31,030 nucleotides of DNA from an uncultured Planctomycetales bacterium (GCA_964572435.1 CAZNGC010000001.1:1-31030); one strand, 5' to 3'. Shown: positions 1 through 13,813, counted from the first letter of the stretch. Notes: generated from the sequence alone by a model not told the origin. Translations and numbers: made by a program.

Positions 1-405
1 AAAAAGTGCGCCGGCTAAATTATAGCGAAGCTGGTAACGGGTGAGAGAATACACCCTTAAGGCCCCGCATAAAACAGCCAATAAGACAAATATCTTGGTC
101 CCCCCCACAGCTCCGAATACCATAACAATAAGCATCAGGGGGCTCAAAGATATGTCGTAAGGAAAGCCGATAAAAGGATACCCCCCGCAGAAATGCGGGA
201 CCCTGAACGGGAATTGCTGGTACTGGGTAATCAGGACCCTGAAGAAATCCCGATACGGGCAAACCCCGCACCAATCAATCCTGGGTATACCGTTTCCGAA
301 ATCCCTGAAAACAGGCAGATAAAACAAAAATCCCAATAACAGGATAACCGCGCCGGCGGCGAGATCCCAGGAATTCCTTTTTAGAAACCGGATGGCATTC
401 TTCAT
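1..405 (-). CDS. Multi-pass membrane protein, YfhO/GT-C-like glycosyltransferase; 5' part only, runs off the window start
   Basis: Absent from the ORF track. My translation from ATG at 405 (ATGA overlap with the upstream stop) is open to base 1: MKNAIRFLKRNSWDLAAGAVILLLGFLFYLPVFRDFGNGIPRIDW...FPFRVPHFCGGYPFIGFPYDISLSPLMLIVMVFG... A TM1, an acidic loop residue and a P-x-x-x-P-x-x-x-GG-x-P segment resemble YfhO-like GT-C N-termini. Confidence 0.7.
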   Translation of the reverse strand, partial: MKNAIRFLKRNSWDLAAGAVILLLGFLFYLPVFRDFGNGIPRIDWCGVCPYRDFFRVLITQYQQFPFRVPHFCGGYPFIGFPYDISLSPLMLIVMVFGAVGGTKIFVLLAVLCGALRVYSLTRYQLRYNLAGALF

Positions 406-1799
406 CTTCTTAAATTTGAAACCATGTGTAAAATAGCCATAAACCCTTTTTCCAGTATTTTCAGTTTATCCGGGACCACCCTCCATATCCGCCAGATCTG
501 GCGCGGCCGCAGGTAAAATTCCCTGAAGGCCCTAGCCTTCATCATCTTTAATTCACGGTCATCGGCTCCTGAAATGTTTACCGAAGTCTTATGATAAGTA
601 TAGACATCAACCATGCGCATTTTCAGGTTTTCATCCAGGATCTCGTTGAACATAACGGTATTCGGCTGGGGGATCAGGAAGAAAAAATCCGCTATATGAA
701 ACCCCTCCTCCTTGGCGAAGCGTATCGTCTGGAGCATCTCTTCCTTTGTCTCTGTCGGAAAACCCAGCATGAAATATCCGCAGGTGATTATACCCTCCTG
801 TATGGTCCTGGCAATGATCTGCCTGGCCCTGTCCAGGTTAAGGTTCTTCCTGATGTTCTTCTGGATCCGCGGGGAAGCTGATTCAATGGCATAAAATATC
901 ACATGCGTACCCGCCTGTTTGAGCTTCAGGATAAGCTCCTCATCCATCCTGTCTACGCGCAGGGCGTTAGGGAAAGAGATGGCTACCTTGATCTTGCGCC
1001 TGATTATCTCGTCGCAGATTTCTTTTGCCCGGGGGATATCGAAATTAAAACAGTCGTCGATAATTTCTATTTCCTTGACCCCGTAGTCGTTAACCAGGAT
1101 TTCGATCTCCCTGATCACATTCTGCACGCTCCGGAAACGTATCTTCTTGCCGAATATGTTATGGCAATAAGTGCACTGGTAAGGGCATCCCCGGGAAGTA
1201 AACAGGGGGGCGATGTTCCGAGATGAAGGGAAAGGGGTCTCCGAATGATGTTTAAACCTGCTGAAATACCCCTTTATATCGATAAGGTCCCAGGCCGGAA
1301 AAGGCAGGCTGTCTAAGTCTTCGATCATCTCTGCCGCGGGGTTGACTACGCAGGACTGGTTCTTCCTGTAAGCCAGGCCGCTGATCTGCGAAAAATCATT
1401 GCCATTGCCCAGGGAATCCGCCAGCTTTACCATCGTCCTCTCCCCTTCCCCGATAACCGCAAAATCGATATTCTGATCGCGCATGATGTATTCCGGGCTG
1501 GAGGTGGCATACGGCCCCCCGACAACGACCTTACACTTCTTGTTGGATTCCTTGGCCAATCCCGCCAGGCGGTGGACTTCTTTAAACTCCAACGTCATTG
1601 CCGATATGCCGACCAGATCCGGGGAGAGCCCTTTCAGCCTATTCGCTAGGCCCCGGTGGTCCAGGCGCTCATGGGCCGCGTCGATAATCGTTACGTCGGT
1701 ATGGCCGTGGCCCTTGAGATAAGAAGCAAGATAGAGCGGACCCACCCGCAGGTTAGACTGCACGGATTTTGAATTAGGGATCATCAACACTATCTTCAT
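402..1799 (-). CDS. Cobalamin-binding (class B) radical SAM protein, paralog A
   Basis: N-terminal B12-binding Rossmann domain (LYLASYL..VTIID..PDLVGIS..VVVGGPYAT..DFAVIGEGE) and SRGCPYQCTYC CxxxCxxC motif; 465 aa. Confidence 0.92.
   Translation of the reverse strand: MKIVLMIPNSKSVQSNLRVGPLYLASYLKGHGHTDVTIIDAAHERLDHRGLANRLKGLSPDLVGISAMTLEFKEVHRLAGLAKESNKKCKVVVGGPYATSSPEYIMRDQNIDFAVIGEGERTMVKLADSLGNGNDFSQISGLAYRKNQSCVVNPAAEMIEDLDSLPFPAWDLIDIKGYFSRFKHHSETPFPSSRNIAPLFTSRGCPYQCTYCHNIFGKKIRFRSVQNVIREIEILVNDYGVKEIEIIDDCFNFDIPRAKEICDEIIRRKIKVAISFPNALRVDRMDEELILKLKQAGTHVIFYAIESASPRIQKNIRKNLNLDRARQIIARTIQEGIITCGYFMLGFPTETKEEMLQTIRFAKEEGFHIADFFFLIPQPNTVMFNEILDENLKMRMVDVYTYHKTSVNISGADDRELKMMKARAFREFYLRPRQIWRIWRVVPDKLKILEKGFMAILHMVSNLRR
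693..1580. repeat. 888-bp direct repeat, copy 1 (identical to 2103..2990)
   Basis: Line-by-line comparison at offset 1410 found no mismatch between 693 and 1580; the flanks diverge. Confidence 0.95.
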
Positions 1800-1817
1800 C
1801 TTGCTCCACCGGAAATA

Positions 1818-3209
1818 TTATCTGCCGGCCAGGGCGCGGATAAATACGACCAGCCCGTTTCTTAAGAGTATCCTTTTGTCCGGGACCGCCCTCCATATCC
1901 GCCAGATCTGGCGCGGCCGCAGGTAAAATTCCCTGTGCCCACGCGACCAGATACATCGCAATTCACGGTCGGAAACAGCCGACTTGTTATAGCTCAACTT
2001 CTGGTATCTGTTGATTTTAACATTTGCCCCTTCGCTGCTTTTACCGAACATCTCGTTGAACATAACGGTATTCGGCGGTGCGGTTACGAAAAACATGTTG
2101 ATTATATGAAACCCCTCCTCCTTGGCGAAGCGTATCGTCTGGAGCATCTCTTCCTTTGTCTCTGTCGGAAAACCCAGCATGAAATATCCGCAGGTGATTA
2201 TACCCTCCTGTATGGTCCTGGCAATGATCTGCCTGGCCCTGTCCAGGTTAAGGTTCTTCCTGATGTTCTTCTGGATCCGCGGGGAAGCTGATTCAATGGC
2301 ATAAAATATCACATGCGTACCCGCCTGTTTGAGCTTCAGGATAAGCTCCTCATCCATCCTGTCTACGCGCAGGGCGTTAGGGAAAGAGATGGCTACCTTG
2401 ATCTTGCGCCTGATTATCTCGTCGCAGATTTCTTTTGCCCGGGGGATATCGAAATTAAAACAGTCGTCGATAATTTCTATTTCCTTGACCCCGTAGTCGT
2501 TAACCAGGATTTCGATCTCCCTGATCACATTCTGCACGCTCCGGAAACGTATCTTCTTGCCGAATATGTTATGGCAATAAGTGCACTGGTAAGGGCATCC
2601 CCGGGAAGTAAACAGGGGGGCGATGTTCCGAGATGAAGGGAAAGGGGTCTCCGAATGATGTTTAAACCTGCTGAAATACCCCTTTATATCGATAAGGTCC
2701 CAGGCCGGAAAAGGCAGGCTGTCTAAGTCTTCGATCATCTCTGCCGCGGGGTTGACTACGCAGGACTGGTTCTTCCTGTAAGCCAGGCCGCTGATCTGCG
2801 AAAAATCATTGCCATTGCCCAGGGAATCCGCCAGCTTTACCATCGTCCTCTCCCCTTCCCCGATAACCGCAAAATCGATATTCTGATCGCGCATGATGTA
2901 TTCCGGGCTGGAGGTGGCATACGGCCCCCCGACAACGACCTTACACTTCTTGTTGGATTCCTTGGCCAATCCCGCCAGGCGGTGGACTTCGGAAGACTCC
3001 ATACTCATCCCGGATATGCCGACCAGATCCGGGGAGAGCCCTTTCAACCTATTCGCTAGTCCCCGGTGGTCCAGGCGTTCATGCCTGGCGTCGATAATCG
3101 TTACGTCGGTATGACCGTGGCCCTTGAGATAAGAGGCAAGATAGAGTAAGCCGAGCGGAATGCTGCGGATTACTTCAGGCGCGTTTGGTATGATAAATGA
3201 TATTCTCAT
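1818..3209 (-). CDS. Cobalamin-binding (class B) radical SAM protein, paralog B
   Basis: Same architecture as 402..1799, with CPYQCTYC; 463 aa; start overlaps the GT2 stop. Confidence 0.92.
   Translation of the reverse strand: MRISFIIPNAPEVIRSIPLGLLYLASYLKGHGHTDVTIIDARHERLDHRGLANRLKGLSPDLVGISGMSMESSEVHRLAGLAKESNKKCKVVVGGPYATSSPEYIMRDQNIDFAVIGEGERTMVKLADSLGNGNDFSQISGLAYRKNQSCVVNPAAEMIEDLDSLPFPAWDLIDIKGYFSRFKHHSETPFPSSRNIAPLFTSRGCPYQCTYCHNIFGKKIRFRSVQNVIREIEILVNDYGVKEIEIIDDCFNFDIPRAKEICDEIIRRKIKVAISFPNALRVDRMDEELILKLKQAGTHVIFYAIESASPRIQKNIRKNLNLDRARQIIARTIQEGIITCGYFMLGFPTETKEEMLQTIRFAKEEGFHIINMFFVTAPPNTVMFNEMFGKSSEGANVKINRYQKLSYNKSAVSDRELRCIWSRGHREFYLRPRQIWRIWRAVPDKRILLRNGLVVFIRALAGR
2103..2990. 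repeat. 888-bp direct repeat, copy 2
   Basis: Identical to 693..1580. Confidence 0.95.
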
Positions 3210-3928
3210 CTATTCTTTACTTGCCCATTTAAAATCCGGAATTTAATCCTGATAAGATCGACAAAATAGACAAAGCACAGGTTAATCAAGTATAAACCGA
3301 TCATCGAAGACTTGCCTGTTTTACGCGCAAAATGCTCAACCGGGATCTCCGTGATCCTGTAACCCTTAAACTTGGCCAAAATCATTACGGCGATGGGGAC
3401 TGCCGAAAAACCGCTATCGATATCCAGCATAATAGCCGTTAACGCTTCCTTTCTGATAAGTTTGAACGGAGAGTTTATATCCTTTATCGATATACCGAAA
3501 AGAAACATATCCATCCAACATAACAGCAGGGAAATCATCCTGCGGTGAAGGCGGTCTTTTCTTTTTAAGCGGTATCCGACAGCTATATCGCAACCTCGCA
3601 TGCTTGCGTATAGCTTCCAGAATTCCTCCAGCCTGAACTGATTGTCACCGTCAACATGAAAAACCAGAGGATTGACCGCCAGCTCAAACGCCTTGCGCAA
3701 AGCCCTGCCATGCCCGCGGTTTTTATCCAGGGTAACCACTTTCAGCTCACCGAATTTATCCCTGAGGCGCTCCAGGACTACGGACGTCGAATCAGTAGAA
3801 CCATCATTAACAACTATGATCTCGGAACCCGGTATTTTCAGGATTATCTGTGCATGGCAATCTCCGATCACCTTCTCGAGAATGTCACCTTCGTTAAACA
3901 CCGGGATAACGATCGAAACGGCATGCAT
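3206..3928 (-). CDS. GT2 glycosyltransferase, polyprenol-phosphate glycosyltransferase (DPM synthase/ArnC-like)
   Basis: SIVIPVFNE, VVNDGSTD, NRGHG, DGDNQF (DxD), KDINSPFKL, EIPVEHFARKTGKS motifs; 240 aa. Confidence 0.9.
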   Translation of the reverse strand: MHAVSIVIPVFNEGDILEKVIGDCHAQIILKIPGSEIIVVNDGSTDSTSVVLERLRDKFGELKVVTLDKNRGHGRALRKAFELAVNPLVFHVDGDNQFRLEEFWKLYASMRGCDIAVGYRLKRKDRLHRRMISLLLCWMDMFLFGISIKDINSPFKLIRKEALTAIMLDIDSGFSAVPIAVMILAKFKGYRITEIPVEHFARKTGKSSMIGLYLINLCFVYFVDLIRIKFRILNGQVKNR

Positions 3929-3933
3929 ATCTT

Positions 3934-5049
3934 TTAACGGCCTCCGGATAGCAATTCCATTCTTTTCTCTGCACTCAAACCCGGATAACTCTCTACTGCC
4001 TCGATATTATCCAGGCACCATTTGACTGTTTCATCCATATCGTAATACCGGAATAATCCAAGCCTGCCTATGCTCAAAAGGTTCTTTACGCGCACCAGCC
4101 TGTCCAGATACCGGTCAAAAATTGTCCTGTTCGCCTGCGTATATACGGGGTACATCCTGTTAGCCCCGGACGGGAATTCATACCCGACGATCGAAGAACC
4201 GCCGTCCCACGGTCCGTAACAAATGCTATAATTGCACTTTCTGGTAAAAGCGACATTGCTCTCGGGGTAATTAATACACCCGTATCTATCGTCTTGCCAA
4301 TGCCTCTCATCGAAACAAAAGGTAAAATCTATCCCCCTGTAACCCAGGGCCCCGTAACAAAAATCGAACAGTTCGTCTATCGGGATGGTCGATATGATCA
4401 AATCGTAATCCAGTCCGGGATAATCCTTTATCGCGGAGTTATAACGCACCGGGATGCCTTTTATCATCTCTTCAAACATCTGCTGATAACCGCCAACAGG
4501 CAAACCCTGCCATTGGTCATTAAAATAACCCGCGCCGTCATCTTCCCTGATCTCTATCTTCTTAGGGGCCCATCCGGCGTCCATCTCTTCAGGCGCCACC
4601 CCCCAGAATTTGACGGTATAATTACCGATGAATTTATTATACAAGGTTTCCCCGATCATCGAAACGACGCAAGCTTTAAAATTCGACGTATCCATTCTTT
4701 CCGGAAGCCGGGAAAGTTCCCGGAGAATAATATCCTTCTCCTCAAGGGTATCTATTGTCCTAAGGCTGATCGGATAAGGCAGTATTCTGCCCCCGACGAA
4801 TGTGGCTACGCGATGCAGATAGTTGTTCAATTCGGCAAACCTGCGGATAAACCCCGCGACCGCCCCGTCGCCGGTATGGAAATTATGCGGCCCAAATAAC
4901 TGATACGGCCTGTTTTGATAAAAGGCGCTCTGACAAAGCCCTCCCGGACGGTCTGCTTTCTCATAAACTATTACCCCATGCCCCCTGTCTTTAAGGAGCC
5001 TGGCGATCGTGCAACCGGATAATCCGGCCCCGATAACCGCTATGCGCAT
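3934..5049 (-). CDS. glf: UDP-galactopyranose mutase-like FAD-dependent NDP-sugar mutase
   Basis: GAGLSG dinucleotide-binding motif, GPHNFHT, KFWG, QGLPVGGY, YPV and GRLGLFRYYDMD, all matching Glf/UGM motifs. The exact substrate is uncertain. Confidence 0.8.
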   Translation of the reverse strand: MRIAVIGAGLSGCTIARLLKDRGHGVIVYEKADRPGGLCQSAFYQNRPYQLFGPHNFHTGDGAVAGFIRRFAELNNYLHRVATFVGGRILPYPISLRTIDTLEEKDIILRELSRLPERMDTSNFKACVVSMIGETLYNKFIGNYTVKFWGVAPEEMDAGWAPKKIEIREDDGAGYFNDQWQGLPVGGYQQMFEEMIKGIPVRYNSAIKDYPGLDYDLIISTIPIDELFDFCYGALGYRGIDFTFCFDERHWQDDRYGCINYPESNVAFTRKCNYSICYGPWDGGSSIVGYEFPSGANRMYPVYTQANRTIFDRYLDRLVRVKNLLSIGRLGLFRYYDMDETVKWCLDNIEAVESYPGLSAEKRMELLSGGR

Positions 5050-7434
5050 TTAAATCTTCCCCCCATACGGCCGGCCAAGATCGTTTTCTGTGCCATTTTC
5101 AAAATCAAACAGGTATTCAGGCGGAATGCAGGCCGTCTGCCCCGACCATCCATTCCTATTATAAGCATATCTCCTGGAAACACCCATACCCAATCCTTCA
5201 TATATATAGCCCCGGAACTGCCGGTCGAATTTTTGTATTAGTTTCGCGCAGCTTTTAAGATCATAAGCGAACCTCCATCCGATACCGATACCTAACCCTT
5301 TATAAAGATACCTGTCATAGCTGCCGGACACCCTTTTCAGGAATCCCGGATAATCCTTCAACCCGTGAACCAGCCTCCATCCGGCCTCAATACCAAGACG
5401 TTGATAGCATAAAGGCCTGTATTTGTCGTCTACCCTGTTTACAAGCTTCTCCCATTTAGCGGCATCATAACCGGCCCTGCCTATGCCGAATCCGAACTCG
5501 CCGTACAAGAACCGGTAATATTCCTTGCCCCGGCCCATCCCCGCGTATACCGCACGCACCTGCCTATCTTCCAGCATCCTGGTAAAGCGGAAAAACTTCT
5601 CCGGTTGATCGACCAAAAGGTCGAATAACTCCACCCCCATGCCGGTGTAGATAAACAGCTCATCCTCTTCGGGAAACCTTTTATGGAAATCCATTACAGC
5701 GTATTCCGGATCATAAGAAACTTCCCTGGCCGCTTCCCTGCCGATACCAATATAAAAATATTGCTTCACCGCCGGATCAAGATAACCTTTTAAGCCAACC
5801 ATCCTATCCCTATCGTACTTCAACTCCCTCTCCAGGGCCTCGCCCATCCACTCGTAGGCATAAGGCCAGTAGGCTTTCTCTATTTTATTTATCTCTTTAC
5901 CCAGGTAATTCCGGTAGTCGTTGTCGAAATTCTCCTCGGCATATCCCCAGCCCATCCCGCTATAACAATACCGCCTTTCTTCTCCATCTCTTATCCTGCT
6001 TACAGAATCAACCCAGCGGGATGATCCGTCAAACCTCCAGGCAATCACCCTGCCTAGGTCATAATAATTGTACCCCCTGTAAGCAGCGGAAAACCCCGCC
6101 TTCTCCATGGAGCTCTTGGATATAAAATTTGAATTTGAAACCACGCCCAAGATCAATAAGGCTGCCACGGGAAAAAGCTTCAGTAAGCCAGGCGCGCTTC
6201 TTCGGGAACTCCGATTATTGCCGTAGAGAAATATGGCTATGACCGCAGGAAACAGGAACCCTATAGGGCCAACCTGCCTGTAACGGTATATGCTCGCGTC
6301 ATAAAAATTCACGTTAAACGGCAGACCGGACAAAGCCAGAACAACGCCAAATACCACGAAAAGCGACAACAGGAATAATTCTTTATGGACATCACGCAGC
6401 GAAAATGGAGCCCCCGAAAAAGTGATAAGCCCCCGAAAAAGCGCTACAGCTTCTTTCCGCCTGCGCCATAATATTCCTAAGAAAGAGACTTCGAATACAA
6501 AATAATAAATATGGGAGCAAAACCGGTTTTCCAGCAGCGCACGCGGCTCAAATTTCAGGAATGGATCGGCAAAAGTCAGGGCCCCCGGCACATCAGCGGC
6601 AAGAAAATCATAAAACCTCGTGAAGAAACCGGCCAGGCTGCTGCGCATAAGCCAATAAGAAAAATGTTTCTCGTAAATAACCAAACCCTGGAATGCGTGA
6701 GTGAAATTATAGCAAAACCAAGGGGCAAGCCCGGCCAGAAAAGCCAGGCAGAAGACAATAAACTGCTTGCTGAATATAAACCCTTTGTCGGAAATATACC
6801 AGAACAAAATAATGGTCAATAAGGTCGGCAGGAAGCTGTAATGGAAAAACATCCCGAAACCACAGATAGCCCCAAGGATTGCAGACAGCCGGATGTTTTT
6901 CCCGATACCGGCGGGGGAAAAATACCGGAAAAACAATAAAACGGCTAAAATGGCAAAAAACATAGCCTCATATTGCGCTCCGTAGTTGGAAATGCTTGCC
7001 TTTATCCATCCCGGAGGCAGGAAAATAAAAAGAACGCTTGCACATACGGCTGTTTTATTGTTGAAGAACTTCCTCAAAAATATAAAATTGAGGATGAAAA
7101 TCCCGGTTCCGGCTAACAAGCCGGTTAATTTAAGAGATACCAGCTTCGCGCCGAAAAGAAGAAAGAACGGTACAGCCAGGAGGCCGCTGACCAGCGAGCC
7201 TCCTTCATACCTGCTCCTCTGGTAATCAAAAAACGGCAGTACCGGGCCCGAGACCAGTTCTTTAGCTACATTGCCGCGGTACAGCTCTTCATCCAGACCG
7301 ACCTGATCTATAGCGAAAAACAAAACCATAAGGCGGACTAATAAATATAAAACGGTCAGCCCCGCCAGCCATGCATATTTCCCCCTGATTCCCCGTAACA
7401 ACCACCGAATCAACATGTAAACTTTACCCGGCAT
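5050..7434 (-). CDS. GT-C fold (ArnT/PMT-like, GT39/GT83) membrane glycosyltransferase with a C-terminal helical-repeat domain
   Basis: About 10-12 hydrophobic segments in the N-terminal ~440 aa, a DE motif after TM1 (GLDEELY), and a soluble C-terminus with eight Y-x-(G/x)-[MLI]-G repeats. Confidence 0.75.
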   Translation of the reverse strand: MPGKVYMLIRWLLRGIRGKYAWLAGLTVLYLLVRLMVLFFAIDQVGLDEELYRGNVAKELVSGPVLPFFDYQRSRYEGGSLVSGLLAVPFFLLFGAKLVSLKLTGLLAGTGIFILNFIFLRKFFNNKTAVCASVLFIFLPPGWIKASISNYGAQYEAMFFAILAVLLFFRYFSPAGIGKNIRLSAILGAICGFGMFFHYSFLPTLLTIILFWYISDKGFIFSKQFIVFCLAFLAGLAPWFCYNFTHAFQGLVIYEKHFSYWLMRSSLAGFFTRFYDFLAADVPGALTFADPFLKFEPRALLENRFCSHIYYFVFEVSFLGILWRRRKEAVALFRGLITFSGAPFSLRDVHKELFLLSLFVVFGVVLALSGLPFNVNFYDASIYRYRQVGPIGFLFPAVIAIFLYGNNRSSRRSAPGLLKLFPVAALLILGVVSNSNFISKSSMEKAGFSAAYRGYNYYDLGRVIAWRFDGSSRWVDSVSRIRDGEERRYCYSGMGWGYAEENFDNDYRNYLGKEINKIEKAYWPYAYEWMGEALERELKYDRDRMVGLKGYLDPAVKQYFYIGIGREAAREVSYDPEYAVMDFHKRFPEEDELFIYTGMGVELFDLLVDQPEKFFRFTRMLEDRQVRAVYAGMGRGKEYYRFLYGEFGFGIGRAGYDAAKWEKLVNRVDDKYRPLCYQRLGIEAGWRLVHGLKDYPGFLKRVSGSYDRYLYKGLGIGIGWRFAYDLKSCAKLIQKFDRQFRGYIYEGLGMGVSRRYAYNRNGWSGQTACIPPEYLFDFENGTENDLGRPYGGKI

Positions 7435-8428
7435 TCTTTAGAAGCGGACTGGAAAATTTGCTCATATTAAACAAGGCGTCCAGCTTGAACGACAACATAC
7501 AATTAAGCTCAACCGATGAAGGACAGGAGCATTTATCGCAATAAACGAAGGGAAGTTGATAGAACCTGTTTTTGAAACCCGCGGGATCCCCGCTTGGCGC
7601 CTCCCGGGACAGCCGATTCCTGAAACATATATCGAGACTTCCGTCGCTTTCGATCCTGGCGGAAACAAGGCCTGCGTAACAGGGGATCTTTTTCAACCGG
7701 GGCCAATCATACAAAAATTTCAGCCCGGATACGGAATGGCCTATAGTATATTTATCTTTCATTTTCCTGCCTATAAGATACCGTATGACTTTCCTGTATT
7801 CACCATCTTCCGGAGCCAAAGGGTTGCGCTGGCTGCCCCCCAGCAGGAAAACTGTCGATGGCTGAAAAATAATCGAAGCGTTAAATTCCCTGGCCTTATC
7901 CAAGAGAAAATCGACACAACCAAGGTTAAGGCTTGAAAGTACCGTGAGGATCCTCGGAGTTATTTTATGCTCTTTTATTACGGAAAGCGCATCGATCACT
8001 TCCCTATACGATCCCTGCCCCCTGATCCGGTCATGCACTTCTTCCGGGCCATCCAGGCTTAAACCGACCAAGCTTAGGTTCCTGATTTCTTCTATCCTTT
8101 GGCTGATAAGCGAACCATTGGAATTAACCGAACTCAAAACCCCTACCTGGCGGCAGTGATCTATTATCGCCCCAAGGTCATCTCTCAACAAAGGTTCCCC
8201 GCCGGTAAAGTGGATTATCCTCGTGCCGAGCCCGGACATCTCATCTATGAGCGCGAAAACCTGCGGGGTAGTTAATTCTTTCGATTTAATATTATGGATA
8301 TTGCAATATTGACAGCTGCGGTTACAACGGGTGGTAATTGCCCAGCTCACGACAAGCGGTGTTTTCTTCCTGAAAATACGCGCCGCAAACAATGAATAAG
8401 CGATGGAAAGCTTGTTTTTTATCCCCAT
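7424..8428 (-). CDS. Radical SAM protein with a Twitch/SPASM-type C-terminal Cys cluster
   Basis: CNRSCQYC, FTGGEPLLR, SLDG..HDRIRG; C-terminal CYAG..G.L.IC..CDKCSC. Start set at ATG 8428; TTG 8449 in the ORF track is the alternative. Confidence 0.88.
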   Translation of the reverse strand: MGIKNKLSIAYSLFAARIFRKKTPLVVSWAITTRCNRSCQYCNIHNIKSKELTTPQVFALIDEMSGLGTRIIHFTGGEPLLRDDLGAIIDHCRQVGVLSSVNSNGSLISQRIEEIRNLSLVGLSLDGPEEVHDRIRGQGSYREVIDALSVIKEHKITPRILTVLSSLNLGCVDFLLDKAREFNASIIFQPSTVFLLGGSQRNPLAPEDGEYRKVIRYLIGRKMKDKYTIGHSVSGLKFLYDWPRLKKIPCYAGLVSARIESDGSLDICFRNRLSREAPSGDPAGFKNRFYQLPFVYCDKCSCPSSVELNCMLSFKLDALFNMSKFSSPLLKNAG

Positions 8429-8463
8429 ATTCCCGAAACCTCCAGGCAAAATCCTCCATTGTC

Positions 8464-8491
8464 ATTATATCATCCGCTTCCCTTAAATCAA
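8464..8491 (-). promoter_or_regulatory. sigma70-type promoter for the Twitch-rSAM to GT-C operon
   Basis: TTGATT-16 nt-TATAAT with an extended -10 (TGA-TATAAT), in the 8429-8572 intergenic gap. Confidence 0.6.
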
Positions 8492-8572
8492 AACATACAT
8501 TCTAAACCGAAAAGGCAACTACAGGCAGGGCAGGCGGATACGTATATGCCGCAATGATGCGTCCGGGCCGGA

Positions 8573-9973
8573 TCAACGCAGGGCAAACGCGGAATGAATG
8601 AGCCCGCGGAATTCCCTCCAGGACCGGACTCCCATAGCTGTCTTGAATATAAAGGCCGGCCTCAAGTAAAAGCTCCTCATGGATTTTTTTATCCACCTAT
8701 CCAGGTCGTCCGCGGAAAGTTCCGAATCAAGCGGGGCAAAACCACTCGACAATTCCTTGTGGCCGAGGGCATACTCCATCCAAGTGTCCACGCCGTCGCG
8801 CCGCACCACCATATCGTACAAACCGGTGTTTGGTATGGGGACAAGTTTGTTAATCTGCACGTAGTCTAGGTTGAGTTCTTTGGCGAATTCGACTGTCTTA
8901 AGGATATTCCGCCTGCTTTCTCCAGGAAAACCGATTATAAAGAACCCTAAAACCGACATTCTTTCCTCTTTCGTCCAACGCACCACATCCCTGATTAACG
9001 AAAGCGGGATATCCCTTTTAACCGCCTTGAGAACTTCGGGATTTGCGGATTCGATACCATAATGCACTCTTCCGCATCCGGCCCTGGCGAATAATTTGAT
9101 GAGTTCCCTGTCAACGCAATCCGGCCTGGTCCGGATTGTCCAGACAAGGTCCATCTCCCTCCTGATTATCTCCTCGCATATAAGCACGGCCCTCTGTTTA
9201 TTGAGGGAAAATATCTCATCGTAAAAATTGATTTCTTTGATCTTAAACCTGCCGCGGCATTCCTCCATTTCATCGACTACCCTAACAGGATCCCGGAATA
9301 CCACCTTTTTATCATGCAGGCAGTATGTGCATTCAAAAGGGCACCCCGAGCTGGACATCATTACCGTGGAAGGGTATCTCTTCGAAAGAATGGTGGTATA
9401 TTTGTGGTTAGGCAGTAAGTGCCTGGCCGGCCAGGGAGCGCTGTCGATATCGATTTTCCCTTCTCTTCCCCTGGTGATTATAAACTCATCTCCTTTTCTA
9501 AAAGCTATACCCTTGACGCCATTAGGGTCATTGCCATTTTCCAGGCAATTTATCAATTCAGGCATGCTCTCCCATCCCTCGCCTACTACGCAGAAATCGA
9601 TTTCCTTGAAAGTAAGCGTCTGCCGGGGGTAAAACGTAACATGCGGTCCCCCGACAATCACGGTGGCCTTGCAAGCACTCTTTACCACCCTTATCCACTC
9701 TAAATCAACATGAAAATTTGGGGTTACTAAAGAAAAGGAAATGATCCCGGGGTTGAATGTTCTGGCTTCCTCGATAACTTCTTTTACGGTCAGGCGCAGC
9801 GCGTTGGCGTCGATAATCTTAACCTGATGATGTTCCTCCTCCATTATCGCGGCAAGATAAGCAATCCCCAAAGGCGGCAGGATAGCGCCTTCCCGGCTGT
9901 TCTGCCGGCAAACATTCTCGGTAGAAGCAGCCTTGCATACTTGCTGCGGAGGGAAAATGAATAGTATTCTCAT
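8573..9973 (-). CDS. Cobalamin-binding radical SAM protein (HpnJ/BchE-like architecture)
   Basis: LPPLGIAYLAA, VGGPHVT, DFCVVGEGW, SSGCPFECTYC, GIES, GFFIIGFPGE; 466 aa. Confidence 0.92.
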   Translation of the reverse strand: MRILFIFPPQQVCKAASTENVCRQNSREGAILPPLGIAYLAAIMEEEHHQVKIIDANALRLTVKEVIEEARTFNPGIISFSLVTPNFHVDLEWIRVVKSACKATVIVGGPHVTFYPRQTLTFKEIDFCVVGEGWESMPELINCLENGNDPNGVKGIAFRKGDEFIITRGREGKIDIDSAPWPARHLLPNHKYTTILSKRYPSTVMMSSSGCPFECTYCLHDKKVVFRDPVRVVDEMEECRGRFKIKEINFYDEIFSLNKQRAVLICEEIIRREMDLVWTIRTRPDCVDRELIKLFARAGCGRVHYGIESANPEVLKAVKRDIPLSLIRDVVRWTKEERMSVLGFFIIGFPGESRRNILKTVEFAKELNLDYVQINKLVPIPNTGLYDMVVRRDGVDTWMEYALGHKELSSGFAPLDSELSADDLDRWIKKSMRSFYLRPAFIFKTAMGVRSWREFRGLIHSAFALR

Positions 9974-10031
9974 AATATTACGGATGATGAAACTTGCCTT
10001 ACCGCGATGTTTTAAAACTTCTGCCGTCTTT

Positions 10032-10871
10032 TTAAGAAGCCTTTTCGGGCAACAAGATAGTCAATACCGCGCGTATGCCCCATTTTGGCCCGCAGCTGGG
10101 AGTCTGCGGGTAATAGATCCCGGATATCCCGGCGCTCAAGAACCTGCCGAAAAACGGGATAACCTGGCTAACCCCTCCGATCAGGGGGACCGTCCACTCC
10201 CTGTCCTTCCAGTTATAAGTCGATTCGGAAGAAAAAGAAATGGTGAATCCATTCTTGGAAGTATGCGAGAAAAAAGGCTGGAGGTAAGTAGCGCATATGT
10301 CCTGGCGCGAGTCATTACCGGCATAAGACCAGGTATGGTTGGCAAGAACACCCGCCGTCCACGGACCGGATTGCTTAAGCACGACTCCGTTAGGGCCTAC
10401 CCCGTATTTTTCAGAACCAAGGTATTTACTGGCGGCCGTTGGGAAAAGCAAAACCGGGCCTACCCCCCAAATCAACCCTTTTGACCCCGGCTCTTTGGGG
10501 GAAAAGAAAGCCTCTATCTCCATATCGCCGAAACCTTCCTGTGAAGCCCGTCCGACGACGTCTTTTTGGTAAATATAAGGCACGATCGGACGGAATATGA
10601 AATTCCAATCTTGATTAACGGAAAAAGGGACCACCGGCTGGGACTTAAGCGTATAACGGAAACCTTTCTTTTCAGAACCAAGCTTGTATTCAAAGTTATT
10701 CTGGAAAGGAATACTGATCAGCGAAGCTACGGGATTTTGCAGTTTCTTGGCTAATTTTTCGCTGGTTGCCACGGGTGGTTCTGCCCCGCTTCCGGGCCGG
10801 GCTTCTTCCTGGGCAAAAATAACCCCCCGGGACAATAACAGAATCACTGCGCAATATATAAATTTCTTCAC
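10032..10871 (-). CDS. Putative outer-membrane beta-barrel ('transporter'/MetA-pathway-like family)
   Basis: Signal peptide, LAKKLQNPVASLISIPFQNN family signature and alternating beta-strand pattern (WGVGPVLLFPTA, YLQPFFSHT). Confidence 0.75.
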   Translation of the reverse strand: MKKFIYCAVILLLSRGVIFAQEEARPGSGAEPPVATSEKLAKKLQNPVASLISIPFQNNFEYKLGSEKKGFRYTLKSQPVVPFSVNQDWNFIFRPIVPYIYQKDVVGRASQEGFGDMEIEAFFSPKEPGSKGLIWGVGPVLLFPTAASKYLGSEKYGVGPNGVVLKQSGPWTAGVLANHTWSYAGNDSRQDICATYLQPFFSHTSKNGFTISFSSESTYNWKDREWTVPLIGGVSQVIPFFGRFLSAGISGIYYPQTPSCGPKWGIRAVLTILLPEKAS

Positions 10872-10941
10872 AAATAACCCCTGTCTTTTTAAATACCCGG
10901 GAGAAATTCTTCGGCTGGCACATCCAATTCCAACTTAAATC

Positions 10942-11044: not shown

Positions 11045-11118
11045 TGGTTGCCCCGCATGGACTCGAACCATGACAACAAGATCCAGAATCTTGTGTCCTA
11101 CCATTAGACGACAGGGCA
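11045..11118 (-). tRNA. tRNA-Gln(CTG), CCA encoded
   Basis: TGCCCTGTCGTCTAATGGTAGGACACAAGATTCTGGATCTTGTTGTCATGGTTCGAGTCCATGCGGGGCAACCA: U1-A72 acceptor stem, anticodon arm CAAGA-TTCTGGA-TCTTG and T-loop GTTCGAG. Confidence 0.96.
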
Positions 11119-11236: not shown

Positions 11237-11539
11237 CTATCTTAATTTAACGGCTATATCCAGAAGAGTGCTAACCAAAAAAGATCTTATGAACATTATC
11301 GCCAGGAAAGCGATTACCGGGGATATGTCGATGCCGAACTTCAGGCTTACCGGAAGGACTCTTCTTATGGGAGACAGCACCGGTTCGGTAAACTTCTCCA
11401 GGAACTGCACTATCGGGTTATACGGATCAGGGTTAACCCAGCTTAACAGCGCGCGGATTAACAACAACCAGTAATATATCCCGAGGATTACGTTTAAAAC
11501 ATTGGCTGCAGCGACGATAAAATTAGCGAGGATAAAAAT
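11237..11539 (-). CDS. yggT: YggT family membrane protein, apparent ATT start codon
   Basis: IRALLSWVNPDPYNPIVQFL..TEPVL.PIR..DISP signature. The family-like N-terminus (M)FILANFIVAAANVLNVILGIYYW begins at ATT 11539, 6 nt after GGAGG. The ORF-track start at 11467 truncates TM1. Confidence 0.85.
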   Translation of the reverse strand: MFILANFIVAAANVLNVILGIYYWLLLIRALLSWVNPDPYNPIVQFLEKFTEPVLSPIRRVLPVSLKFGIDISPVIAFLAIMFIRSFLVSTLLDIAVKLR

Positions 11540-11562: not shown

Positions 11563-11709
11563 TTACTTGCCAGCGCCATGCGCGTCTTCGTATTTCTTCA
11601 GAAACTTTGTAATATTTTTGTTTATACGGCGGATGTTGAATGATATGTCCACGATAAAAACAAAAACCAACCCCAGCATCAATGCTGAAAAAACGGTTGT
11701 ATAAAGCAT
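11563..11709 (-). CDS. 48-aa single-pass membrane peptide, unknown function
   Basis: AAGGAGG RBS then ATG; MLYTTVFSALMLGLVFVFIVDISFNIRRINKNITKFLKKYEDAHGAGK*. Below the ORF-track length cutoff. Confidence 0.65.
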   Translation of the reverse strand: MLYTTVFSALMLGLVFVFIVDISFNIRRINKNITKFLKKYEDAHGAGK

Positions 11710-11939: not shown

Positions 11940-12524
11940 TTATTTATCATTCTTCGCCTTACCGCCAAGCTTTCCGGCATCCAGATTAGCCGTGGCCGAC
12001 TGGATTATCTTCTGGTATTCTGGAGGCAATTTTGAGAGGTCCATGCCCGCGGGCAGGCCTCCGGCAGGGCTGACCGTCCCGGGCTTCCCGGAACCAGCTC
12101 CCTGCATACCTTGCGTAACCATCTGGATCATCTTCTTGTATTCAGGCGGCAGTTGGGATAAATCCGCTTCCGGAGAAGGCCCTGAAACCACAGGGATTGT
12201 TTCCACAGGCTGGGCGGCCTCCGGAGGCGTCAATAAAACAGCCTTTTCTTCCTTTGGCTTAGGAGGGATATTCAACGAAGACGAATAGGCCTGGTAAAGG
12301 GATTTAAGCTGGGGGCTGACAACATCGTTCCCCGGGACAATGGAAGCTATTTCATCCTTATAGTAAACCAGCTCCACCCCGAGAAAATCCAGTTTCACGT
12401 ACTGTTCCGTATTCTCGGTAATCTTCGCATCGACTCTTTGCCCCGATTTAAGTATTATCGTTTCGCTAAAACCAGTCCCCGCAAAAGAAACCAGGAAAAT
12501 GACGCAAGAAATGCAAAGTTTCAT
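11940..12524 (-). CDS. Secreted hypothetical protein with a Pro-rich linker and two DLSxLPPEYxKxIQ repeats
   Basis: Signal peptide; small beta domain (IILKSGQRVDAKITE); ATG 12524 overlaps the gltX stop (ATGA). The ORF track starts at 12533. Confidence 0.75.
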   Translation of the reverse strand: MKLCISCVIFLVSFAGTGFSETIILKSGQRVDAKITENTEQYVKLDFLGVELVYYKDEIASIVPGNDVVSPQLKSLYQAYSSSLNIPPKPKEEKAVLLTPPEAAQPVETIPVVSGPSPEADLSQLPPEYKKMIQMVTQGMQGAGSGKPGTVSPAGGLPAGMDLSKLPPEYQKIIQSATANLDAGKLGGKAKNDK

Positions 12525-13813
12525 TTTGCCCATTTCAGCAGTCTCCTTTTCGTCCTTTCCATCCCAAGATGATATATCAGCTCAAAGAGCCCGGGGCCGA
12601 TGGTTTTTCCGGTCAAGGCCACCCTTAACGGATGGATCAATACCTTAGCCTCAATATTGAGTTCGGAAACCAGGTCCCGGAAACATTTTTCGATATTCTC
12701 AACACTGTAATCGCTTAATCCTTCAAGCCCGGCGATAAAAAGATTGAATTCTTTTGACAGGTCCCTGCTCAAGAATTTATCCCGGGCAGCCGGATCCATT
12801 GCTGCTTCTTCAACGAAAAAGAAATCCGCCCAGTCGGCGAAATCGTTTATGTGGGCAAGCCTGGGTTGGAATAATTTTATCAGCCCAAGGACATACTCGC
12901 GGTCATACCCTTCTTTTTTAATATACCCCTTATCGATAAGCAAAGGCATAATTTCGTCCAGAAGCTTCTGCGGGTCAGCATCCTTCAGATACTGGTTATT
13001 TATCCAATCCAACTTCTTGAGGTCGAACGTGGCCGCGGTCTTATTCACGTTCCTGATATCGAACAGCGCAACCGCCTCTTTAAGGCCGATTATCTCCCGG
13101 TTCCCCCCGGGAGACCAGCTTAATAACAAAAGATAATTTACCAATGCCTCCGGCAGATAACCCATCCTGCGGTAATCGCTGATCGCGGTCGCCCCTGTTC
13201 TTTTGGAAAGCCTTCCTCCGTCAACACCCATGATCAAAGGGAGGTGCGCAAAATAAGGAAGCGAAAAACCCAGGGCCTCATAAAACATGGCCTGTTTGGG
13301 CGTATTGGAAATATGATCGTCCCCGCGGATTATGTGCGTAATATTCATCTCCGCGTCGTCAACCACGCAGGCGAAGTTATATGTAGGGGTGCCGTCTGAT
13401 TTTATCAATACCTGGTCTTTTATCAGGCTGGAATCGAATTCAATCTGCCCGCGAACCAGGTCGTTAACCTTTATCTTCCCGGAGGGGACCTTAAAAATCA
13501 CCGCCTCCTTGCCCTCGGGAGATTTTTCAATATAGGCCAGGCCGGATTTAAGCAGTTTATCGGCATGCATACGATACCTGTCAAAACGCTCGCTCTGATA
13601 ATAAAGCTCATCCCAATCAAAACCCAGCCACTTGAGACTGAAGAGTATCTCGTCGACAAATTCCTTCTTCGAACGCTCTTTATCCGTGTCCTCGATCCTC
13701 AAAACAAACTTGCCTTTTTGTGATTGCGAAAAAAGCCAGTTAAATAAAGCCGTGCGCCCTCCTCCGATATGCAGATTGCCTGTCGGGCTCGGTGCGAATC
13801 TTACCCTAACCAT
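12521..13813 (-). CDS. gltX: Glutamate--tRNA ligase
   Basis: VRVRFAPSPTGNLHIGG, RIEDTD, IIRGDDH, RLSKR (KMSKS-equivalent). Confidence 0.96.
   Translation of the reverse strand: MVRVRFAPSPTGNLHIGGGRTALFNWLFSQSQKGKFVLRIEDTDKERSKKEFVDEILFSLKWLGFDWDELYYQSERFDRYRMHADKLLKSGLAYIEKSPEGKEAVIFKVPSGKIKVNDLVRGQIEFDSSLIKDQVLIKSDGTPTYNFACVVDDAEMNITHIIRGDDHISNTPKQAMFYEALGFSLPYFAHLPLIMGVDGGRLSKRTGATAISDYRRMGYLPEALVNYLLLLSWSPGGNREIIGLKEAVALFDIRNVNKTAATFDLKKLDWINNQYLKDADPQKLLDEIMPLLIDKGYIKKEGYDREYVLGLIKLFQPRLAHINDFADWADFFFVEEAAMDPAARDKFLSRDLSKEFNLFIAGLEGLSDYSVENIEKCFRDLVSELNIEAKVLIHPLRVALTGKTIGPGLFELIYHLGMERTKRRLLKWAK

Follow-up and report, generated by a model that had tools for sequence, protein, structure and literature searches.

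A radical SAM-rich glycosylation island in an uncultured Omnitrophota bacterium and the unusual surface sugar it probably makes

The DNA analyzed here (GCA_964572435.1, CAZNGC010000001.1:1-31030; 31,030 nucleotides, hereafter the window) is the entire contig C1 of G000, a 1.38-Mb metagenome-assembled genome (MAG) of an uncultured Omnitrophota bacterium (204 contigs, 93% complete). Positions 1-10871 hold nine open reading frames (ORFs), without exception on the minus strand, in which genes for radical S-adenosylmethionine (SAM) enzymes stand beside those for a family 2 glycosyltransferase (GT2), a homologue of the mutase Glf, and membrane glycosyltransferases of the GT-C fold. Comparison with related loci supports the view that these genes work together as one conserved unit, and the set probably makes a chemically unusual, so far uncharacterized surface sugar.

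Layout of the island

Junctions between the nine ORFs range from an 11-nucleotide (nt) overlap to a 123-nt gap. Overlaps occur at 405/402 (4 nt), 3209/3206 (4 nt), and 7434/7424 (11 nt), two ORFs abut at 5049 and 5050, and the gaps measure 18 nt (1799 to 1818), 5 nt (3928 to 3934), 123 nt (8449 to 8573), and 58 nt (9973 to 10032). The first-pass annotation, made from the window alone, had described nine co-oriented, tightly packed genes, and this picture holds; its limits for the locus (1-10871) proved too narrow. Window position 1 is the contig end and lies inside the second GT-C gene, and the locus resumes on contig C85 of the same genome with the remainder of this YfhO-like GT-C, followed by a GT-C of the PMT_2 family, a fourth B12-binding radical SAM (B12d), and a convergent gene. 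Since the C1 fragment of the YfhO-like GT-C continues on C85, the locus is a putative operon in the order (outer-membrane protein)-B12c-small radical SAM-GT-C794-Glf-GT2-B12b-B12a-YfhO-like GT-C-PMT_2 GT-C-B12d, about 17-18 kb in size and split by the assembly across the two contigs. It encodes five radical SAM enzymes, a class sensitive to oxygen, four B12-binding and one SPASM-like, and the CxxxCxxC motif is intact in all of them. A scan for promoter-like and terminator-like sites returned counts at chance level, and a tRNA was the sole match in an Rfam scan.

The independent assemblies of the G000 MAG, L010, and L017 all break in or just past the tandem B12a/B12b region (window 402-3209). 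The near-identical core of the two genes probably fragments the assemblies, and their copy number in the window is therefore provisional.

Glycosyltransferases and radical SAM enzymes

The 794-amino acid (aa) protein GT-C794 (5050-7434, minus strand) combines approximately 11 transmembrane (TM) helices (residues 1-435) with a C-terminal alpha-solenoid containing seven Y-x-G-x-G repeats (~440-794). The protein itself has no Pfam match above cut-off, while PMT_2 is matched by 17 of the 21 members of its family; about two dozen relatives were found among 5.8 billion proteins, some of them labelled GT39 by NCBI. The AlphaFold2 (AF2) model, derived from 21 homologues (pLDDT 78.5, pTM 0.78), aligns with 30 GT-C enzymes of solved structure (Z 14-26), after which the scores fall sharply to Z ~6. 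The matches include ALG12 (Z 25.7), ArnT (21.9), and Pmt4 (20.9), as well as AglB, Pmt1, Pmt2, STT3, PglB, DPY19, EmbA-C, and AftA. Catalytic acids of GT-C enzymes sit between the first two helices; the invariant acids of the GT-C794 family (E50 within an LDEELY motif, E59, and D70) occupy this position in the model, in the first loop. The solenoid shows a faint match to DUF1702 (E=0.044) and a weak likeness to the proteasome PC-repeat toroid (Z ~6).

The second GT-C gene of the window (1-405, minus strand) encodes the first 135 of approximately 648 residues and is 66% identical to residues 3-136 of a 648-aa membrane protein (L016:17011-18957), which comes next after two tandem B12-binding radical SAMs in its own locus. 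The fragment itself has no family match. The remainder, on C85 (L029 4090-5508), aligns with residues 193-640 of that protein, and about 56 aa are absent between the two pieces, a gap of about 170 bp. A weak match to YfhO (PF09586, E=7.7e-4) was recorded. A model of the 648-aa orthologue (pLDDT 86) gave 13 Foldseek matches at E<1e-3, all of them GT-C enzymes (AglB, AftA, STT3, PglB, AftD, and others). The third GT-C (545 aa, C85) scores 34.9 bits against PMT_2, with a cut-off of 26.1. By these results the large membrane proteins are GT-C glycosyltransferases, in agreement with the two such enzymes proposed earlier for the window. A sequence relation between GT-C794 and the YfhO-like family was sought with hhalign and nothing was found.

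The GT2 (240 aa, 3206-3928, minus strand; PF00535, 83.8 bits) has no TM helix and is predicted to be a polyprenyl-phosphate sugar synthase. Its best solved relatives are ArnC (62 bits), DPMS (48 bits), and GtrB (35 bits), other GT2 structures scoring at most 31 bits; the earlier assignment to the DPM/ArnC type agrees with this, the protein being closest to the polyprenyl-phosphate sugar synthases ArnC, DPMS, GtrB, and PpgS. PpgS is not known to have TM helices, and its model (226 positions) is not longer than this GT2. UppS is present in G000, as are a corrinoid adenosyltransferase and a BtuF-like binding protein.

The Glf/UGM homologue (371 aa, 3934-5049, minus strand), a candidate nucleotide-sugar pyranose-furanose mutase, reaches 140.5 bits against PF03275 (cut-off 26.3) and also exceeds the cut-off of NAD_binding_8, while its TIGR00031 score (201 bits) lies under the cut-off of 303.75. 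It scores 175 bits to the Deinococcus radiodurans UGM structure 3hdq, with the Tyr, Trp, and Arg substrate-binding positions aligned. Among the residues which we take to be the UGM substrate positions, Y179, W184, Y209, R305, Y335, R364, and Y370 are kept in the 3hdq alignment and R198 corresponds to Lys. Judged by this alignment, the putative mutase retains most of the UGM substrate-binding residues.

Three B12-binding (class B) radical SAM proteins are encoded in the window, all on the minus strand: B12a (465 aa, 402-1799; PF02310 73 bits, PF04055 80.5 bits), its tandem paralogue B12b (463 aa, 1818-3209; assigned by Pfam, NCBIfam, and the tree described below), and B12c (466 aa, 8573-9973; PF02310 81 bits, PF04055 78 bits). 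B12d (472 aa, C85) likewise matches PF02310 and PF04055. Both domains exceed the Pfam cut-offs in all four proteins, which thereby have the class B architecture and are predicted to use cobalamin. A CPYQCTYC motif is seen in the alignment of B12a and B12b, which are 85% identical to each other with an identical central block; the identity between B12c and B12a is 31%.

The top NCBIfam matches of B12b are BchE (199 bits), a P-methyltransferase (179 bits), and HpnJ (161 bits), all far under cut-off. Across the three window proteins the scores are 180-199 bits for BchE (cut-off 481), 161-167 for HpnJ (cut-off 577.6), 101-179 for Sden_1168 (cut-off 575), and 90-108 for TIGR04295 (cut-off 400). For each of them HpnJ ranks within the top three models and is covered at nearly full length. 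Among solved structures AprD4 comes second for B12b (69 bits), and its model scores 82-112 bits against a cut-off of 500, so membership is not indicated. As the BchE, P-methyltransferase, HpnJ, AprD4, and QCMT models give similar, sub-threshold scores, the type of chemistry (methylation, ring contraction, or dehydration) is not readable from the sequence.

In a maximum-likelihood tree of 31 B12-binding radical SAMs from the compared loci, three well-supported orthogroups are found: group A with B12a and B12b (8 rows, support 100/98), group C with B12c (4 rows, support 100/99), and group D, composed of B12d and L014_2558 (support 100/100). Because of this topology, the three groups are taken to represent three long-kept functions and no recent burst of paralogues. 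The two copies of the tandem group A pair share 73% identity in L011 and L016, and the pair is old; in G000 it has been partly homogenized.

The small radical SAM gene (7424-8449, minus strand; PF04055, 80 bits) is an ORF of 341 aa. Translation probably starts at the ATG at 8428, giving 334 aa; this start is backed by the 334-aa gene call in L010 and by a GGAGG 11 nt ahead of the ATG. Cysteines 42/46/49, 99, 257, 275, 304, 307, 309, and 317 are conserved in five orthologues. The C-terminal ones follow the pattern C257-x17-C275 (with G-x4-C) and C304-x2-C307-x-C309-x7-C317, to which C99 is added; the spacing is non-canonical. Since these cysteines suffice for two auxiliary clusters, the protein is better described as SPASM-like than as clearly Twitch. 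The first-pass annotation had counted four radical SAMs in the window, three B12-binding and one Twitch; the three and the small one stand by Pfam, and the Twitch label gives way to the cysteine pattern. PF13186 was not detected in the small radical SAM of the window and is on record only for another small radical SAM gene in L012. The top NCBIfam matches are StsB, GeoRSP, and PqqE-type proteins.

Conservation, recurrence, and boundaries

Neighborhoods of GT-C794 homologues were taken from public assemblies and their genes labelled by BLASTP against the window proteins, which gave four independent loci for comparison (L011, L016, L012/13, and L014/15). The order small radical SAM-GT-C794-B12c-(Glf)-GT2-B12a/b-YfhO-like-PMT_2 is kept in L011, L012, L014, and L016 at 40-69% protein identity. 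Identities are 50-62% for the small radical SAM, 40-57% for GT-C794, 54-57% for B12c, 54-64% for Glf, 47-59% for GT2, 52-69% for the one or two B12a/b orthologues, and 40-58% for the YfhO-like GT-C, while a PMT_2 orthologue (37-57%) is located farther along in L014 and L016. The B12c orthologue is missing in L016. The earlier proposal that the genes belong together as a unit is thus strengthened by the co-occurrence check, in which the same genes recur in the same order in four independent loci.

L014/15 is the same DNA as contig C16 of genome G324, the proteins of which are labelled "Patescibacteria group bacterium" at NCBI. According to the genome collection, G324 and G000 belong to one family, and the label is likely a taxonomic mislabel. 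A spread to Patescibacteria was considered and dropped: as G324 shares its family with G000, the locus gives no evidence for cross-phylum transfer. The full-length GT-C794 family was found in two of 301 Omnitrophota genomes searched (G000 and G324). At E<=1e-30 a match is present in 22 of the 301, G000 included, and beyond G000 and G324 only the membrane (GT-C) part is covered. In none of 36 same-genus genomes was a close GT-C794 homologue found, G007 and G009 having distant ones only (27-32% identity). The island is accessory and sporadic.

The first-pass annotation knew of no characterized pathway with this combination; the combination is not unique, recurring within G000 and in relatives. 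Nine B12-binding matches were obtained in G000, and the counts of radical SAM genes are at least 8 of the B12 type and approximately 10 SPASM-like ones, mostly beside glycosyltransferases. Of five B12 loci, four have a GT2 match no more than 5 kb away, a distance that takes in only 6.2% of the genome (rough binomial P ~7e-5). On contig C34 (L032 3173-9955), a GT2 (238 aa) is followed by a class I methyltransferase, a B12-binding radical SAM, a YdjC deacetylase, a second B12-binding radical SAM, and a 596-aa protein without family match, for which hhalign likewise returned no relation to the YfhO-like family. On contig C56 (L033), a B12-binding radical SAM (451 aa) has as its neighbors three GT2s and a gene resembling Wzy_C/O-antigen ligase. 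On contig C26 (L034 7507-11523), a B12-binding radical SAM gene comes after two beta-ketoacyl synthases and ahead of a "cyclase", a setting that hints at lipids. Small SPASM-like paralogues (24-37% identity to that of the window) form tandem arrays of two or three genes on contigs C125, C117, C181, and C64, with GT2 matches on the same contigs in the case of C64, C117, and C125.

Outside G000, the same-genus genome G007 carries an analogous, very divergent module (B12, B12, GT2, B12, radical SAM, radical SAM, GT-C; 23-39% identity). Locus L031 (GCA_026394195.1, JAPKYS010000023.1, 130869-152272) encodes ten B12-binding radical SAMs nearly in a row, five of them in a single recent clade, and has on their flanks two PMT_2 genes, a 242-aa GT2, YdjC, a methyltransferase, a GT9, an epimerase, and a Bac_transf initiating-transferase fusion; here the arrangement is taken to an extreme. 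Distant B12-binding radical SAM homologues (24-27%) are also found in plasmid glycan loci of cultured Desulfovibrionaceae, on Lawsonia intracellularis plasmid 1 (L062, NC_008012.1) and Solidesulfovibrio carbinolicus pDCAR1 (L063), together with GT2s, GalE, DUF2142, several methyltransferases, and heptose-type HAD, GHMP, and SIS genes. These organisms are possible experimental entry points.

At the upstream end, the last gene of the packed array (10032-10871, minus strand) encodes a 279-aa signal-peptide protein, probably an outer-membrane channel. Its language-model neighbors are the "Transporter"/Phenol_MetA_deg outer-membrane families (0.98), a likeness by features only, and it has no Pfam match at E<=1. 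L010 (SRR2043632 assembly, ~94-95% nucleotide identity) has cleanly lost the approximately 700 bp that correspond to window 10177-10874 (at L010 7256-7263), a deletion which takes most of this gene and leaves its 3' end, and BLASTP with the window proteins found no homologue in the other compared loci. On these grounds the outer-membrane barrel, named earlier as a component, is removed from the system. A tRNA-Gln(CTG) gene (11045-11118, minus strand; ARAGORN, Rfam tRNA 61 bits) lies 173 bp upstream of the first island gene and marks the upstream boundary. Same-genus genomes retain the tRNA and the genes upstream of it; in the two that were checked, G007 and G019, unrelated genes come next. From 11940 up the genes are housekeeping ones (GltX, 2-oxoacid:ferredoxin oxidoreductase, Dxs, XseAB, a GH39-like protein, YmdB, RNase Y, and others).

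Between the tRNA and the next gene lie a 76-aa YggT-like ORF (11237-11467, minus strand) and a 48-aa hydrophobic small ORF (11563-11709, minus strand), the latter likewise called in L010. The next gene (11940-12533, minus strand) encodes a 197-aa lipoprotein-like signal-peptide protein without family match, which has a Pro/Ala/Ser-rich tail with two DLS(Q/K)LPPEY(K/Q)K(M/I)IQ motifs. Over 65 residues it is 45% identical to the product of L061 12025-12939, encoded directly after the analogous GT-C module of G007. That this protein is a target of glycosylation would be pure speculation.

A possible pathway and competing explanations

Chances are about even that the island is an accessory operon decorating an acceptor of the cell envelope by a lipid-carrier (polyprenyl-phosphate) route, with periplasmic glycosylation and radical tailoring of the donor. 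Going by homology, the Glf homologue would turn a UDP-hexopyranose into a furanose, and the TM-less ArnC/PpgS-like GT2 would put a sugar on polyprenyl phosphate at the inner membrane face. The B12-binding radical SAMs of groups A, C, and D and the SPASM-like enzyme must work in the cytoplasm, where they may modify the sugar on its nucleotide or lipid before flipping. C-methylation, ring contraction to a carbocycle, deoxygenation, and epimerization are candidate chemistries for this step, which is suggested by gene linkage and by the precedents of HpnI/K/J, Cds, GenK, and AprD4. A flippase would carry the donor across the membrane, outside of which transfer would fall to the three proteins recognized by fold as GT-Cs: the PMT_2-like one with the DUF1702-like solenoid, the YfhO-like one, and the short PMT_2. 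The B12-binding groups and the GT-C types neighbor each other roughly one-to-one, which suggests a separate tailored donor for every GT-C. A more specific proposal, that the orthogroups act on polyprenyl-phosphate-linked sugars and that each makes a different C-methylated, deoxygenated, or carbocyclic donor for its partner GT-C, is tentative and rather doubtful.

Several established systems share parts of this arrangement. As in Gtr (GtrA/GtrB/GtrC), ArnC/ArnD/ArnE-F/ArnT, CsbB/GtcA/YfhO, and PpgS/Rv3779, a GT2 related to ArnC, DPMS, GtrB, and PpgS stands beside GT-Cs of the PMT_2/ArnT and YfhO types. Unlike in the Gtr, Arn, and CsbB-YfhO systems, no flippase of the GtrA or ArnE/F type was found here, there are three GT-Cs per one GT2, and four B12-binding radical SAMs and one SPASM-like enzyme are present, whereas the known systems contain none. 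Assembly of mycobacterial arabinan and galactan (Glf; DPA via DprE1/E2; Emb/Aft) offers a furanose mutase, remodelling of a sugar while lipid-linked, and several GT-Cs that use polyprenyl-phosphate monosaccharides; the fold search with the YfhO-like protein recovered the mycobacterial AftA and AftD, a resemblance at the level of the fold only (10-13% identity). The remodelling in mycobacteria is, however, performed by a flavin/NADH epimerase and not by a radical SAM, and Galf is used there from UDP-Galf by GT2 polymerases and not by GT-Cs.

For the radical chemistry, the nearest parallels are the hopanoid enzymes HpnI/HpnK/HpnJ, which convert bacteriohopanetetrol (BHT)-glucosamine to the cyclitol ether, and the calditol synthase Cds: in both a sugar is put on a lipid and then rearranged by a radical SAM (PMC13459092), HpnJ being B12-binding. 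The GT2 of the island is instead ArnC-like, and neither the Hpn nor the Cds pathway includes a GT-C. GenK, GenD1, AprD4, and BtrN from aminoglycoside biosynthesis are class B or twitch/SPASM radical SAMs which methylate, dehydrate, or oxidize sugars; unlike the situation proposed here, they act on soluble pseudo-oligosaccharides and belong to actinomycete antibiotic clusters. In full-text searches of the open-access literature for B12-binding or radical SAM enzymes together with glycosyltransferases, polyprenyl, O-antigen, GT-C, or Omnitrophota no such cluster turned up, and a 2026 review of B12-binding radical SAMs lists no sugar or glycolipid substrate terms. Glycosylation by lipid carriers and GT-Cs is known, and the radical SAM layer on top of it is uncharacterized.

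A number of observations weigh against the lipid-carrier pathway. No GtrA-type flippase (PF04138) turned up in G000, which is 93% complete, and the cluster includes no small multi-TM gene, an EamA gene being present in L014 only. The top NCBIfam matches of the GT2 (ArnC, PgfS, AglJ, Dol-P-hexose transferase, and PpgS) all remain under cut-off, C-terminal TM helices such as those of ArnC and GtrB were not found in it, and this single GT2 would have to serve three GT-Cs. Glf is missing from L014, the G324 version of an otherwise orthologous locus, so a furanose is not essential to the system; of the pyranose-furanose mutase step postulated at the outset, the GLF domain and most UGM substrate residues hold up and the step itself becomes optional. 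Naming the B12-binding enzymes by NCBIfam or the Protein Data Bank (PDB) was attempted and failed, no named subfamily being near its cut-off and the match to QCMT (73 bits) being uninformative. Their nearest solved structure is this same QCMT, a protein methylase; with these scores, the earlier suggestion that the radical SAMs act on sugars, possibly by C-methylation, gains no backing from named families. Finally, a close homologue (50% identity) of the B12-binding enzymes stands alone among housekeeping genes in Elusimicrobiales.

That nearest structure also fits a different scheme, in which the radical SAMs mature a peptide or protein, either a substrate resembling ribosomally synthesized and post-translationally modified peptides (RiPPs) or a secreted envelope protein, which PMT/STT3-like GT-Cs would then glycosylate outside the membrane. 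SPASM-type radical SAMs are mostly peptide maturases, as the top NCBIfam matches of the small radical SAM recall, and relatives of PMT_2/GT39 O-glycosylate proteins. A Cys-rich ORF of 32 aa (6 Cys; 8491-8586, minus strand) even lies between B12c and the small radical SAM, just upstream of the latter. Its TTG start is, however, located within the B12c gene, the 94%-identical L010 has TTC in place of this codon, and the other loci have no counterpart; it is therefore probably not a gene. Eight loci (window, C85, C34, L011, L012, L014, L016, and L061) were searched for small ORFs, and none is common to any two of them at E<0.01. The gap ahead of the small radical SAM is at most 31 nt in four loci, and as the gene abuts the preceding one there is no room for an upstream small ORF. 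With an empty cross-locus search and an unconserved sole Cys-rich candidate, the RiPP version was set aside, and the scheme as a whole is decidedly improbable.

The product could also be a membrane glycolipid, the GT2 glycosylating a lipid and the B12-binding enzymes turning the head-group sugar into a carbocycle or altering the chain in the manner of HpnI/K/J and Cds. The rank of HpnJ among the best models speaks for this, as do the C34 module, with its YdjC deacetylase as in the Hpn pathway, and L031, both of which hold a GT2, YdjC, and a B12-binding radical SAM, the same three families as HpnI/HpnK/HpnJ; the gene behind two ketoacyl synthases on C26 points in the same direction. The HpnJ scores nevertheless fall far under the cut-off of 577.6 bits, the GT2 has no match to the HpnI model, and a squalene-hopene cyclase (PF13243) was not found in G000. 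With scores short of the HpnJ and HpnI cut-offs and no cyclase in the genome, membership in the hopanoid system is excluded. Three GT-Cs, moreover, imply transfer of polyprenyl-phosphate donors to an external acceptor and would be superfluous for a simple head-group pathway, and a glycolipid product is accordingly considered unlikely. Purely incidental adjacency, with radical SAMs of unrelated functions merely sharing a variable region with glycosylation genes, would agree with the sporadic distribution of the island, the solitary homologue in Elusimicrobiales, and the chance-level counts of promoter-like and terminator-like sites. This explanation is very improbable given that gene order is kept in four loci at 40-69% identity with overlapping stop and start codons, that the B12 orthogroups are conserved, and that the association of radical SAMs with GT2 recurs in several separate loci of G000.

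If the radical SAMs of the lipid-carrier pathway do tailor lipid-linked sugars, radical chemistry on unactivated carbons would join the synthesis of bacterial surface glycans. It would also help explain the heavy investment of tiny-genome anaerobes such as G000 in radical SAM enzymes and corrinoid salvage, and would predict new sugar structures, possible biomarkers, for anoxic sediments and groundwater. A sporadic, tRNA-adjacent, and fast-diverging island is consistent with a surface trait that varies among strains, for instance escape from phages or predators or attachment to a host, in these putatively epibiotic bacteria. Should each orthogroup indeed supply its partner GT-C with a different donor, the island would exemplify a modular anaerobic logic of tailoring on the lipid carrier followed by transfer, which would be wide in Omnitrophota and other uncultured anaerobes.

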